Assembly: GCA_964559315.1 (NCBI GenBank)
Contig: CAZLGL010000006.1
Location: forward strand, 2,683 to 66,682
Direction: 5' to 3'
DNA from: an uncultured Coxiellaceae bacterium
Lineage (GTDB): Bacteria; Pseudomonadota; Gammaproteobacteria; DASZBR01
DNA length: 64,000 nt
Shown here: positions 20,008-24,801 of the stretch, in pieces
How positions within the stretch are numbered: the stretch's first letter is position 1
Layout: each line of letters starts with the position of its first letter
Made by a program: the position numbers and the translations under genes
Notes under the pieces: model-generated
Seen by the model: only the letters and a program-made list of their open reading frames with translations
Databases searched by the model: none
Told to the model about the DNA's origin: nothing

Positions 20008-20053
20008 TATGAAAGGTATTGGTGGAGATGGGTGGACTCGAACCACCGACCTC
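20008..20053 (-). repeat. 46-bp direct repeat duplicating the 3' end of tRNA-Met (distal att site of an integrated element)
   Basis: attggtggagatgggtggactcgaaccaccgacctcagcattatgag is identical to 24723-24768, which is the 3' part of the intact tRNA at 24725-24801. Confidence 0.8.
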
Positions 20054-20238
20054 AGCATTATGAGAGGTATTTACTCAATCTCCTCAAGGCAAAACAATAT
20101 AACTCAGTATAAAAAAAACTCAAAGATTTACAGGGTAAAGTTAAGTTTTTTGGGGAATTTCTGTTGCATTGATTTAGAGTTGTTACCATTCCATTCTACT
20201 CCTCTTGGACTTAGGGTGGACTTACGGGAGAAACAATA

Positions 20239-20505
20239 ATGAAACTTAAACTAACCAAACGATCCATCAAATCCTTACTACCTAGCATTAAACCCTACGA
20301 AGTCATTGATGAAGACATACGAAGCTTTCTGCTCCGTATTCAACCTTCTGGCATCATGACATATTATCTTTCTTATAGAATCACTGCAGGTCTAAAAAAG
20401 CGTTTTCGCATTGGCCATCAGGGCTCCCTCTCCGCTGAACAGGCCCGAGAAATCGCCCTTAAGTTAACGGGGAAATACCTGTCGGGGACAGATAAACCAA
20501 CCAGC
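20239..20505 (+). pseudogene. Remnant of a P4-type tyrosine integrase (N-terminal arm DNA-binding domain only)
   Basis: MKLKLTKRSIKSLLPSIKPYEVIDEDIRSFLLRIQPSGIMTYYLSYRITAGLKKRFRIGHQGSLSAEQAREIALKLTGKYLSGTDKP matches the DUF4102/P4 integrase N-terminus. Integrase similarity stops after ~88 aa; the catalytic domain is absent, and the ORF runs on in frame into unrelated sequence. Confidence 0.7.
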
Positions 20506-20898
20506 CTTTTGACTACCGAAGTTCCCCCCCCATCTTGCTTAAAATGGTCTATAATTATCCGCGTAGAAGTTAATCTAAGCACTACTTTAAGAATGAGGGT
20601 TTCTATGGATGAAGTATTTAAAAATGACAAAATGTTTACTGCTTGGAATTCCCAGCAAAATGTGTGGGTATTTTGCCATATTGGGGATAAAGTCGCTTAT
20701 TTTGGAGATCCCGGCGCCGTCAGCGCACCAGTAAGACCTAATTTTTTAACTTCTCCATCTCAAGTAAAATCTGAAGAGGATAAGGCAAAAGAATGGAGCG
20801 CAAAATTCACGACGTTTTTTAAAACTCGAAGTGAAGTGGGAAAAACTAAACATGCATTCTACTCATTGGGAAGATCGCTTCTTCCGCCTCAACCTAAT

Positions 20899-21807
20899 AT
20901 GCAATTCATTTTAGCCATTAACATAGCTGCTATGGCCTTTTTATTAGCTGTAACACCAACCTCGGTAAATGCTACATCGACAAACGTTACGAATAGTAGT
21001 ACTACTAATACGGCACTGACTGAATCGCGAATGTGGTACTCGAGCATAAATTTAGCTATGACAATAGCCACACTCGTCTATCTTATTTACTTAGGCGGGC
21101 ATAATAAATACTATGAAAAACCTGAGAATATTAAATGGTATAAAAACGAAATTGAAGAGGAAATTAAAAATAAAGAAGCCATTATCTCCTGGTTGCTTTC
21201 TTTTCTAAAATATAACAACGGCGTAGAAATTAACGATGATAATATTTCTTACTTTATCGCCGAGTTAGAAAAAAATGGGGGTCCTAATCGCTATAAAAAG
21301 ATCTTAGAATCTCTTAAGTTTCTCTCAAATCCAGTTAACACCAAAGTATTAGAAATAGCAAAAGCCTTTTCTGCTGCCAATCGTAGCATCGCTCAAATTG
21401 AGTTTGAATTTGGTATGCAACAGGAAGAAAACAAACCCCTCCCACAAGAAGGTACGAGATTTCTTGCTACAAATGGAATTCTCTACGATCTGGAAATGCT
21501 AGAAAATAGCCCTGAGGCTCTAATGTATGTATATAACATCTGCTCGCCTCATTTCCATGAAGAAAGCCGTAAAATTTATGACAATATACGTCTTGCCATG
21601 AAATCAAACCCAAGAGTTTTATTATTAATAAAAGAGACTAATCAACTCATTGAAGAACTTCTTCAAAATAATAATATTCCCGCAGAAGTTATTGAAACGG
21701 CATTTCAAATAATGAAGGGAACTGCAAAAGATATATTGTATAAAGCTATTGACGTAAAAAATATGGTGGCTGGTAGATTGCCCCCCCGAAGCTTTGGACG
21801 AAACTAG
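20899..21807 (+). CDS. Hypothetical membrane-anchored protein (distal part of chimeric ORF 20239..21807; start uncertain)
   Basis: The internal Met MQFILAINIAAMAFLLAV is followed by two hydrophobic segments and a ~220-aa soluble domain. It is fused in frame to the integrase remnant in the ORF track. Confidence 0.3.
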   Translation: MQFILAINIAAMAFLLAVTPTSVNATSTNVTNSSTTNTALTESRMWYSSINLAMTIATLVYLIYLGGHNKYYEKPENIKWYKNEIEEEIKNKEAIISWLLSFLKYNNGVEINDDNISYFIAELEKNGGPNRYKKILESLKFLSNPVNTKVLEIAKAFSAANRSIAQIEFEFGMQQEENKPLPQEGTRFLATNGILYDLEMLENSPEALMYVYNICSPHFHEESRKIYDNIRLAMKSNPRVLLLIKETNQLIEELLQNNNIPAEVIETAFQIMKGTAKDILYKAIDVKNMVAGRLPPRSFGRN

Positions 21808-21816
21808 GAGCGAAGT

Positions 21817-22353
21817 ATGATTGACGAAAAAACACGAGAGATTTTACTGAAACAAAAATCCAAAGCAGTATCTGATTTACTGGTAAAAAAATTTCCACGC
21901 CCTCAAGAAACCAAGCAAGATGTAGAACTGATTCGAAAAATATTAGTATCTTGTATATACAACGAAAATCCCAACGTAGTTGCATCTGTGCTGAATTATT
22001 TTAAACTGGAGCCTGACATGGTGCTAAAGGGGGAGAATTTCCGTCCCTTGCATCTGGCAGCATCTTCAGGAAATTTTGAAGCTATCAACGACCTATTAAG
22101 GGCAGGAGCTAATCCTGAGCTGCGTGTAGCATTGCCTAATAGTAATATAACAGCTGACTTTATGGACATTTTAAAAGCTCAAGTGAATACAGCTCTTATC
22201 GCTAAAACTAACGCTTTACTCCAAGAGTTAAATGCTCCTCCACCAGAAAAAAGAAACGCACCCTCAAGAAACTCTGATTCTACTGATGATGAGAAAACAG
22301 CAAATATTTCAGCCTCCTCTGCCCGATCGCCTCTTCTTCGCAAAAGAAAGTAA
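21817..22353 (+). CDS. Ankyrin-repeat protein
   Basis: NFRPLHLAASSGNFEAINDLLRAGANPE is an ankyrin repeat consensus. It lies inside the tRNA-Met island. Confidence 0.75.
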   Translation: MIDEKTREILLKQKSKAVSDLLVKKFPRPQETKQDVELIRKILVSCIYNENPNVVASVLNYFKLEPDMVLKGENFRPLHLAASSGNFEAINDLLRAGANPELRVALPNSNITADFMDILKAQVNTALIAKTNALLQELNAPPPEKRNAPSRNSDSTDDEKTANISASSARSPLLRKRK

Positions 22354-22640
22354 ACAACCTTAATAAACAGCTTTATCTAATATTAGAAGATTAGTCTACC
22401 AATACTAATTTATTTCCCGGCGGATTTAATTTAGCAAGAATTTGATCGTAACAACGTCGGAGCATAAATACTCCAAACGACAATCCAAAGAACACCGCTG
22501 CCATGAAATATTGATGTGTGGCAAACGTTAGATAAAAAAAAGTCACTGCCAAAAAGAAATTGATGATCTTTGAGAAACTGAAGAATAATCGTCGCAAGTA
22601 CAACATCAAATAAAAAATACCTGTCATAACTTCTCCTACC

Positions 22641-23279: not shown

Positions 23280-23362
23280 GAGCATCGGTAAGACCCCCTT
23301 AAAATTCCCCAGGTAAGAAATAGAGTTTTTTCATACCTTAAGGTTGTATCAGGAGACTTGTT

Positions 23363-23584
23363 ATGAAAACGAAACGATTTAGCGAAGCCCAAATTTTGGC
23401 TGTATTAAAAGAATATGAAACTGGCGTTTCCGCAGCAGATTTATCAAGGAAATACGGCATTGGTGAAAGCACTGTTTACGCGTGGCATTCAAAATATGCT
23501 GGCATGGATCATGAACTCTTAAAGGAAGCGCTTGGAAAAAAGTTAAATCGGGATCTGAGCGACGAGAAATGGCGAGAGATTTGA
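23363..23584 (+). CDS. IS3-family transposase OrfA (HTH)
   Basis: MKTKRFSEAQILAVLKEYETGVSAADLSRKYGIGESTVYAWHSKYAGM is an IS3/IS407-type OrfA HTH. It is short at 73 aa. Confidence 0.7.
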   Translation: MKTKRFSEAQILAVLKEYETGVSAADLSRKYGIGESTVYAWHSKYAGMDHELLKEALGKKLNRDLSDEKWREI

Positions 23585-24381
23585 TTGCAACACACGACGT
23601 TTCGCTTAGCCGAGCCTGTCGAGTTGTAAATATTGATCGCAAAACTTATCGCCATTTCCCGAAACGAAAACAGGATGAAACTATGCTTGAAGATTTATTA
23701 AAACAATTTTCTGCTCAGTATCCTACCTACGGCTTTGTTAAATTATTTAATTTAATCCGCGAAAAAGGTTACCCGTTTAATCATAAACGCGTGTATCGCA
23801 TTTATTGCGATTTACGGCTTAATCTGAAGATAAAACCGAAGAAACGCTTGGCGCCACGAACAGCAATAAAATTAATACAACCCAGCATCATGAATGAATG
23901 TTGGTCGCTGGATTTTATGAGCGATGCGTTGATAACTGACAAACGCATTCGCACCGCAAATGTTATTGATGATTGTAATCGTGGTGCCATCGGTATTTTG
24001 GCTTCATTCTCATTAACATCCAGACGAATTACACGCTGGCTTGATCAGTTGGCGTTAAGGCAAAGTTATCCCAAACGTATTCGGGTAGATAGTGGCCCTG
24101 AAAATATTTCTCACCACTTCCAGAAATGGGCGAAAAAACACAATGTTTTTATTCAATATATAGAACCTGGGAAGCCTGCGCAAAATGCTTACATTGAACG
24201 ATTTAATCGTACTTATCGTGAAGCAGTTTTAGATATGTATTTATTTAGAAATATCGAAGAGGTTCAACACATGACAGACAATTGGATAAAACATTACAAC
24301 GAGGAAAGACCACACGAAGCATTAAATAATCTAACGCCGATGAATTTTATGAAGCAATTAAATCCAAATTACTCTATTTGA
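23569..24381 (+). CDS. IS3-family transposase OrfB (DDE integrase-like catalytic domain)
   Basis: ...YGFVKLFNLIREKGYPFNHKRVYRIYCDLRLNLKIKPKKR...DFMSDAL...NVIDDCNRG...IRVDSGPENIS...HNVFIQYIEPGKPAQNAYIERFNRTYREAVLD carries the rve-type DDE fold. Confidence 0.8.
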   Translation: MARDLIATHDVSLSRACRVVNIDRKTYRHFPKRKQDETMLEDLLKQFSAQYPTYGFVKLFNLIREKGYPFNHKRVYRIYCDLRLNLKIKPKKRLAPRTAIKLIQPSIMNECWSLDFMSDALITDKRIRTANVIDDCNRGAIGILASFSLTSRRITRWLDQLALRQSYPKRIRVDSGPENISHHFQKWAKKHNVFIQYIEPGKPAQNAYIERFNRTYREAVLDMYLFRNIEEVQHMTDNWIKHYNEERPHEALNNLTPMNFMKQLNPNYSI

Positions 24382-24403
24382 AAACTGGGGACCATAGGGG
24401 GGC

Positions 24404-24541
24404 TTTACAGGGGCTTTACAACCTGACTTTGCCAAAATTGGTCGAAATATACGTTATCTCAAAGAAGAATTAGATTGCTGGCTTGAAAAATACTCTATAC
24501 GACGCAAGTCTTTAAAAGATCTTTATTTAGACCACCCATAA
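24404..24541 (+). pseudogene. C-terminal remnant of an AlpA-like excisionase/regulator, truncated by the IS
   Basis: The frame adjacent to the IS right end reads ...FAKIGRNIRYLKEELDCWLEKYSIRRKSLKDLYLDHP*, resembling the AlpA C-terminus (...G.R.v.W.esEvdeWl). No 5' part was found on the other side of the IS. Confidence 0.35.
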
Positions 24542-24724
24542 CCCATCCCATTGTACTTCTGCATCATTTGGCAAACTTCGACTGTTGCCAAGGTGGTTCT
24601 TTGGTCGAAAATTATGCGACGAAAAACATTTCTCACTTCTTCACCGCGACGAAAAAATGCACTCCATTTGCACTCCAGAGAATTCTATTGAAAATCGAAC
24701 AGTTGAAAAAACCATATATTTAAT

Positions 24725-24801
24725 TGGTGGAGATGGGTGGACTCGAACCACCGACCTCAGCATTATGAGTGCCGCGCTCTAACCGGCTGAGCTACATCTC
24801 C
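24725..24801 (-). tRNA. tRNA-Met (anticodon CAU; elongator-type G1-C72 acceptor; tRNA-Ile2(LAU) not excluded)
   Basis: The reverse complement reads GGAGATGTAGCTCAGCCGGTTAGAGCGCGGCACTCATAATGCTGAGGTCGGTGGTTCGAGTCCACCCATCTCCACCA. This gives a cloverleaf with anticodon loop CTCATAA and an encoded CCA. Confidence 0.85.

Follow-up and report, generated by a model that had tools for sequence, protein, structure and literature searches.

The analyzed stretch of DNA (64 kb, herein referred to as the window; all coordinates are positions within it) contains only one tRNA gene, tRNA-Met(CAT), found on the minus strand at 24725-24801 (ARAGORN; Rfam, 72.9 bits). The 3' end of this gene occurs twice. The two copies, 20018-20064 and 24723-24769, form a direct repeat of 47 bp with an identity of 47/47 and bracket 4.7 kb of DNA. 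Between them lie two cargo genes, both intact, and four mobility genes, all truncated: int, virD4, an alpA-like gene, and orfA of an insertion sequence (IS). This interval and the events that may have formed it are analyzed here. Its features are as follows.

20018-20064: distal attachment (att) site of the attR type, putatively the displaced original 3' half of the tRNA; perfect copy of the tRNA-Met 3' end
20065-20238, plus strand: integrase-proximal arm with tandem TGGACTTA, putative arm-type or operator sites; motif also found in loci L090 and L001
20239-20505, plus strand: integrase remnant, codons 1-88/89, Arm DNA-binding domain only (Pfam, HMMER, alignment to protein P0025)
20506-20604, plus strand: putative deletion joint and region upstream of the first cargo gene; contains a C8 tract, a TATAATTATC box, and a GAGGG Shine-Dalgarno (SD) sequence
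20605-21807, plus strand: intact cargo gene 1, 400 amino acids (aa), two hydrophobic helices, mostly helical, no known domains (homolog P0023)
21817-22353, plus strand: intact cargo gene 2, 178-aa ankyrin-repeat protein with about two repeats at aa ~40-105 (Pfam, PDB)
22354-22631: spacer with minus-strand open reading frames (ORFs) of 78 aa; no homologs or domains
22632-23163, plus strand: VirD4/TraG type IV coupling protein, internal fragment of ~177 codons (PF02534, NCBIfam TraG models, alignment of homologs)
23164-23286: 123 bp between the end of the VirD4 homology and the IS; no matches
23287-24409, plus strand: defective IS3-family IS (NCBIfam, alignment to two other copies)
24410-24541, plus strand: 3' remnant of an AlpA/HTH_17-like gene, ~41 codons and stop, putative excisionase (homology to a gene of L001)
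24542-24722: tRNA-proximal arm with tandem TGCACTCC and two copies of GCGACGAAAAA (sequence, comparison of arms)
24723-24769: tRNA-proximal att site of the attL type, within the intact tRNA (repeat, ARAGORN)
24725-24801, minus strand: intact tRNA-Met(CAT), the integration target, adjoining ychF (24820-25878) (ARAGORN, Rfam)

The repeat comprises tRNA positions 33-77, a 45-nt stretch that starts in the anticodon loop and includes CCA, and two more nucleotides. Its 27-nt core, with up to three mismatches allowed, was found exactly twice in the window, versus 0.00 occurrences expected from 100 shuffles. The left copy is not a tRNA: neither ARAGORN nor Rfam recognizes one there, and it has no similarity to the 5' half of the tRNA, the match breaking off sharply at the anticodon loop. 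A perfect direct repeat of the tRNA-Met 3' end had been described in a first-pass annotation of this DNA. The repeat itself is confirmed, but its length is 47 bp and not 46 bp, and the left copy lies at 20018-20064, about 10 bp from the previously given 20008-20053. The locus has both the direct repeats flanking the integration site that belong to an integrative and conjugative element (ICE) and the tRNA identity block, from the anticodon loop to the 3' end, that belongs to a P4-like integrase. In the Williams 2002 classification, P4-like (DUF4102) integrases are said to use the anticodon-loop sublocation of tRNA genes. Site-specific integration duplicated this 3' identity block.

Mobility-gene remnants

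A single uninterrupted ORF of 522 codons (20239-21807), which the source record lists as one protein, follows the integrase-proximal arm. At aa 5-85 it contains the Arm-DNA-bind_3 domain (PF13356; 33.4 bits against a cut-off of 27, E 5e-8), the N-terminal domain of P4-like integrases. A word-indexed search with the 95-aa N-terminus gave no matches, and HMMER was needed. In the HMMER search against 1.84 billion representative proteins, residues 1 to ~88 match the N-termini of tyrosine integrases of 405-440 aa, and all ~150 listed integrase matches end at aa 85-95. The best full-length homolog, P0025 (418 aa), is 57% identical over residues 1-88, and its remainder matches nothing elsewhere in the window. 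The catalytic domain (R-H-R-Y tetrad, Phage_integrase) is absent in every frame here and elsewhere in the window, so that a functional integrase is lacking. The other two frames of 20065-22700 contain many stop codons, no Pfam match, and no integrase domain. These results agree with the earlier description of a P4-type integrase limited to its first ~88 aa and contradict its alternative, an intact integrase gene in a realigned frame. The SD sequence GGGAG is retained before the int ATG.

The VirD4/TraG fragment corresponds to positions 48-176 of the 468 positions of PF02534 and includes the Walker A motif PPGGGKT. Approximately 165 N-terminal and 250 or more C-terminal codons are missing. The homology spans 22632-23163, and the first possible start codon is located only at 22683; the fragment had indeed been described as homologous upstream of any start codon. 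As judged from its extent, this coupling protein cannot be functional. The fragment is 62-77% identical to coupling proteins encoded after complete trb clusters in loci L004 and L005 (Trb-type type IV secretion system, T4SS). The closest full-length protein, with 74% identity, is VirD4 of locus L104, and a plasmid search with the fragment gave a best identity of 34%. No relaxase ORF was found in 20018-24769. No genes for mating-pair formation T4SS (VirB4/TrbE etc.) were found between the repeats, unlike in L001 and L004.

The IS at 23287-24409, whose limits were set by alignment with two 87%-identical copies, belongs to the IS3 family. Its transposase matches transpos_IS3 (NF033516; 206 bits against a cut-off of 160) and has rve and rve_3 domains, as expected for an IS3 DDE transposase. 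The IS shares with this family the overlap of orfA (HTH_Tnp_1) and orfB (rve DDE), with orfB in the -1 frame relative to orfA, and a right end in CA. The A6G slippery site for the frameshift, AAAAAAG, is retained at 23538-23544. In contrast, orfA has lost 81 bp (27 codons) in frame between G(T/C)ATGGA microhomologies, so that OrfA has 73 aa versus 100 aa; by eye, the lost stretch is coiled-coil or leucine-zipper-like. The left end is CGG in the window and TGG in a copy found in locus L006. The L006 copy is flanked by AGA on both sides, a 3-bp target-site duplication (TSD), whereas no TSD was found at the window IS, which is flanked by CAT(C) and GGG.

The remnant adjoining the IS is homologous to a 76-aa HTH_17-like gene located beside tRNA-Met in L001, over the C-terminal half of the latter (58% over 31 residues, tblastx). 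Its excisionase role is putative, being suggested by size and position. The first-pass annotation had proposed an IS3-family IS inserted into an alpA-like gene. Both the IS family and the alpA-like remnant were recovered, but the arrangement is not that of a simple insertion. The IS adjoins truncated alpA on its right side only, and its left flank is not the missing 5' half of alpA. Because alpA is absent on the left and no TSD is present, the IS is better linked with a deletion or rearrangement.

The final 11 bp of the IS (GGGGCTTTACA) are tandemly repeated just outside its end (24399-24420) and are the first 11 bp of the alpA segment. A second IS copy reduced to a stub may account for this repeat, as may an insertion targeted to the inverted repeat. 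The L006 copy of the IS mentioned above (87% identity, positions 2638-3841; L006 and L088 both correspond to ENA ERZ25039499 contig_6681) is located about 250 bp from a tRNA-Met gene (4091-4167) that is also adjacent to ychF. The organism is a different one, with 69% nucleotide identity of ychF, and its IS keeps the AGA duplication. The presence of this IS near tRNA-Met in both organisms may reflect hitch-hiking on tRNA-Met-targeting elements or a regional preference. Interruption of alpA by the IS of L088 was also considered and rejected, given the intact TSD and the lack of an alpA-like flank.

The spacer between the cargo genes and virD4 contains two overlapping minus-strand ORFs of 78 aa (22391-22667). 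The one at 22391-22627 is strongly hydrophobic; it was considered as an inverted remnant of TrbD/VirB3 and rejected for lack of similarity. BLAST of 20490-20610, 22354-22631, 23164-23286, and both arms against all retrieved loci gave no matches.

Genes for the 400-aa and ankyrin-repeat proteins

The integrase stub was previously described as running in frame into unrelated sequence. For the 522-codon ORF this is literally so, through a linker of only ~33 codons. However, residues 123-522 are a separate gene of 400 aa. In the HMMER search, the only match other than integrases was P0023 (392 aa, E 2.6e-22), which is colinear with this part of the ORF, its own Met1 aligning with residue 123. The decapeptide MDEVFKNDKM is identical at Met1 of P0023 and at M123 of the 522-codon ORF, and a GAGGG SD sequence (20595-20599) precedes the ATG at 20605. 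Since P0023 starts at its own Met1 with the same decapeptide and a GAGGG precedes the ATG, the supposedly unrelated sequence is an independent gene with its own ribosome-binding site.

A TATAATTATC box is located at 20550, about 50 nt 5' of the cargo ATG, and a similar TAYAATTATC box precedes the homolog in locus L089, which encodes P0023. This box is a putative promoter of the first cargo gene, and the cargo operon probably has a promoter of its own. In a promoter and terminator scan, predicted sites were no more numerous than in shuffled sequence. The linker between stub and cargo gene also contains a C8 homopolymer (20524-20531); a change in its length would break the 522-codon ORF and spare the 400-aa gene.

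No Pfam, NCBIfam, or PDB sequence match was found for the 400-aa protein. The second cargo gene, located 3' of the first one, encodes ankyrin repeats, as stated in the first-pass annotation: PF00023 is matched with 23.6 bits against a cut-off of 21.1, and ankyrin and DARPin structures in PDB are matched at aa ~50-120. In L089, a gene located 10 bp downstream of the P0023 gene has an N-terminus that resembles this ankyrin ORF, as judged by eye. Because both genes follow each other in this way in L089, the 400-aa gene and the ankyrin ORF appear to form a conserved two-gene module that is also present in another organism. The cargo was most likely kept as useful to the host, plausibly in the form of secreted or host-interacting proteins. 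A putative role in host interaction is made plausible by the hydrophobic helix pair, the ankyrin repeat, and the neighborhood rich in orphan genes.

Related loci and position of the integrase

In the first-pass annotation, the location of int next to the partial repeat was considered atypical and suggestive of rearrangement. This claim did not hold. The closest full-length integrase homolog is encoded in L090; there, intact int (418 aa) begins ~165 bp from a partial repeat of tRNA-Pro, whose intact counterpart is located at the other end, 8.8 kb away. In L104, intact int starts ~170 bp from a 45-nt partial tRNA 3' half; no intact tRNA was called in this locus. The corresponding distance from repeat to int ATG in the window is ~175 bp. 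In L001, from the metagenome-assembled genome GCA_033763845.1, YchF falls into the same 90% cluster as that of the window, and the locus is colinear with the window through a gene for a 1004-aa protein, ychF, and tRNA-Met. Beyond tRNA-Met, L001 contains a Trb-type ICE with Cro-like, GerE, TrbB, TrbC, TrbD, and TrbE genes, and the first gene of this ICE after tRNA-Met is the alpA homolog and not int. The contig of this ICE, JANRJR010000028, ends within trbE. Because L090 and L104 share the spacing and L001 has the alpA homolog by the tRNA, the position of int corresponds to the norm of the group. In this integrase clade, int is thus native to the end distal to the intact tRNA.

L104 (metagenome contig Ga0206884_1007, positions 4500-14932) is compact and apparently intact. 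It contains the partial tRNA half, int, HEPN, HTH_17, a DUF927 primase-like gene, VirD4, and a MobA/MobL-helicase relaxase. L104 is the best available model for the progenitor module of the window element. The two have integrases of the same domain family, a tRNA half ~170 bp upstream of int, and co-oriented int and virD4. They differ in that L104 targets another tRNA, identity between its integrase and the closest integrase homolog of the window is as low as ~24%, and its alpA-like gene is located between int and virD4.

Tandem 8-mers were found in the arms. A pair of TGGACTTA sites, 11 bp apart (20206-20213 and 20217-20224; GGACTTA matches at 20207 and 20218), is located just 5' of the int ATG. 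L090 has the same pair, with the same spacing, directly 5' of the ATG of its intact int and has the motif again close to its tRNA end; the L001 ICE has it in the arm beside the tRNA. The corresponding arm of the window has a pair of TGCACTCC (24657-24664 and 24668-24675), again 11 bp apart. About 20 bp on the element side beside the tRNA are common to the window and the L001 ICE. In total, three genomes have tandem 8-mers with 11-bp spacing at a distance of 50-100 bp from the 3' end of tRNA-Met: TGCACTCC in the window, TGGACTTA in L001 (6107-6125), and TGGTACAA in L088 (~3990-4025 of L006). They look like diversified arm-type integrase sites.

Origin of the element and neighboring genes

Taken together, the locus is very probably the immobilised remnant of a tRNA-targeting integrative element, either an ICE or a mobilizable island, in the 3' end of tRNA-Met. 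The first-pass conclusion of a decayed, immobilised element that carries an ankyrin gene is thereby upheld by the repeat, the truncated mobility genes, and the intact ankyrin ORF. It is classified as a remnant and not as a member of the ICEs, because a functional integrase, mating-pair genes, and a relaxase are all lacking. For the same reason, self-driven excision or transfer is impossible; a related integrase supplied in trans could still act on the perfect att sites.

The following course of events is proposed. A tyrosine-integrase element would have recombined with the chromosome over the 45-nt stretch of identity that extends in tRNA-Met from the anticodon loop as far as CCA. A new 3' half of the tRNA would have come with the element, and the original half, displaced by 4.7 kb, would now be the left repeat. 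The original element presumably encoded a DUF4102/Arm-DNA-bind_3 integrase, an HTH_17/AlpA-like protein, and a VirD4/TraG coupling protein, with int ~175 bp inside the distal repeat and reading inward and the alpA-like gene by the tRNA. Later deletions would have taken the integrase from codon 89 on, virD4 at both ends, and whatever relaxase or mating-pair genes were present. At least three deletion joints are suggested, at ~20506, ~22631, and 23163-23286. The IS3-family IS would have landed at the alpA end of the element, and a deletion or rearrangement adjacent to it would have removed the 5' half of alpA, which would explain the missing TSD. The IS would afterwards have lost the 27 orfA codons. 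The intact survivor would be the two-gene operon with its own ribosome-binding site and promoter-like box.

Several results weigh against this reading. Without a relaxase or mating-pair gene, the element cannot be shown to have been conjugative. The alpA-like sequences score below threshold in Pfam (16.4 bits, E 0.012 for the remnant and 21.5 bits for the L001 homolog, against a cut-off of 27). AlphaFold models of the 400-aa and ankyrin proteins are of low confidence (mean predicted local distance difference test scores, pLDDT, 38 and 45). No empty tRNA-Met site was found among the matches listed by the YchF scan of genome contigs, all of them distant relatives (≤71% identity), nor did the analysis recover an intact progenitor of precisely this element; the left boundary is therefore defined by the repeat. 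In addition, the 8-mers of the two window arms differ, TGGACTTA being found by truncated int and TGCACTCC by the tRNA, whereas both arms of the intact L090 share one motif; a single-element origin is for that reason less than certain.

These arm motifs bear on an unlikely alternative, namely that the remnant is a hybrid of two related elements that were located in tandem at the same tRNA-Met and collapsed by deletion or by recombination between att sites, the int arm and the alpA arm coming from different elements. Such an origin would account for the two motif types, each present twice, given that both arms of L090 and the region near the tRNA in the L001 ICE are of the TGGACTTA type. The mobility genes also have separate affinities: truncated alpA resembles the L001 ICE, and truncated virD4 resembles the elements of L004, L005, and L104. 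In these three elements the small DNA-binding genes nearby vary, with DUF1233 in L004 and L005 and an HTH_17 gene preceding virD4 in L104. Moreover, at least one other genome (L001) has an occupied tRNA-Met beside ychF, and in L088 this tRNA is flanked by arm-like tandem repeats. However, just two att copies are left, and they are identical; no remnant of a second int, a second alpA, or an internal att site was found. The P and P' arms need not have identical sites, and with five of the eight motif positions matching, drift in a dead element is enough. By comparison, a single ICE whose int was moved from the intact tRNA to the far end by internal rearrangement, as had been proposed, is very improbable. 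In many E. coli P4-like islands int is the first gene after the tRNA, and it is clear that the element underwent several deletions as well as the insertion of an IS. Nevertheless, int is found by the partial repeat in the intact L090 and L104, the ~175-bp distance and the tandem motif are conserved between the window and L090, and the alpA homolog adjoins the tRNA in L001.

Two further explanations concern parts of the locus. The 522-codon ORF is uninterrupted, is annotated as one protein, and keeps a GGGAG sequence before its first ATG; it might therefore be a real chimera of the Arm DNA-binding domain and the cargo protein, expressed from the old int promoter. We consider this improbable, since P0023 begins at the position of M123 with the identical decapeptide, an SD sequence and a TATAAT box are located ahead of M123, and the accidental joining of the frames needs just ~33 codons free of stops. 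It is scarcely conceivable that the left repeat is no integration scar and represents an independent tRNA pseudogene, as the first-pass annotation had allowed, or a chance or assembly duplication. Neither ARAGORN nor Rfam calls a tRNA there, and the limits of the 47/47 identity fall precisely at the anticodon loop and 2 nt beyond CCA, with no similarity to the tRNA 5' half. The integrase starts 175 bp inward of the repeat, in agreement with the intact relatives, and the interval is filled with remnants of mobility genes.

The preferred reading, the remnant of an integrative element at tRNA-Met, has parallels in Legionella. Islands that are located at Met tRNA genes and have phage-type integrases and flanking repeats, as well as Trb-type ICEs with internal transposases, were described in this genus (PMC3218107), and the 43-bp att repeat of ICE-beta-ox in a tRNA gene was verified experimentally (PMC4010831). 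The Legionella islands and Trb-type ICEs (P-type T4SS; Trb-1/Trb-2, GI-Lo1, GI-HL1, ICE-beta-ox) have phage-type tyrosine integrases and tRNA 3'-end repeats of 43-72 nt, versus 47 here. Like the window element, they contain transposases and are found in a low-GC host rich in orphan and ankyrin genes (PMC3218107, PMC4010831). The VirD4 fragment, in turn, has relatives downstream of complete trbB-trbI clusters, as in L004. The window element differs from the Legionella ICEs in its size of only 4.7 kb and the lack of mating-pair genes and relaxase. Its identity to characterized systems is low, with 34% for the best plasmid VirD4, and its host is an uncultured gammaproteobacterium not shown to be a Legionella. 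With P4-like/DUF4102 integrases, the window shares the Arm-DNA-bind_3 N-terminus and the ~45-nt block from the anticodon loop to the tRNA 3' end. Compared with the classic E. coli P4-like islands, in which int follows the tRNA, only 88 residues of the integrase are left, and int of this clade is distal to the intact tRNA (L090, L104).

Decayed islands at tRNA genes are routine, and the class is documented in Legionella; the locus therefore carries little weight for general biology. Its analysis corrects the annotation, in which a 522-aa "protein" consists of an integrase stub and a separate 400-aa gene, and marks the ychF-tRNA-Met site as one of repeated integration within this lineage. In addition, the two-gene ankyrin module, which is rare, is flagged as horizontally delivered cargo and as a candidate effector. 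A further-reaching proposal is offered only tentatively. The decayed element may have delivered and then stranded an undescribed two-gene host-interaction module, consisting of the 400-aa protein with an Inc-like hydrophobic helix pair and the small ankyrin protein, found in two organisms only among ~1.8 billion representative proteins and kept under selection while the four mobility genes decayed; or the remnant may be a hybrid of two elements whose integrases recognized TGGACTTA and TGCACTCC, respectively. Different arm-site recognition in such a hybrid, if true, would point to a diversifying family of tRNA-Met-targeting integrases.

Other genes of the window were also inspected. To the left of the island, a metallo-beta-lactamase-fold protein matching anti-Pycsar Apyc1 (PF23023, 105 bits) is encoded at 16399-17163, and a protein with an OTT_1508-like deaminase domain is encoded at 15197-16357. 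These two genes could be of the anti-defence or toxin type. The gene for the 1004-aa protein (26031-29045) is located between ychF and pth. This protein has no significant Pfam domain, the only hit being a sub-threshold DUF3847, and no PDB sequence match; it contains an acidic repeat tract and a GDGECG motif. Its counterpart at the same position in L001 (1822-4737) has 51% aa identity. Finally, one ORF at 2409-4505 encodes three multicopper-oxidase domains (CopA-like) together with a CopB domain and is located beside a gene for a P-type ATPase (420-2414).

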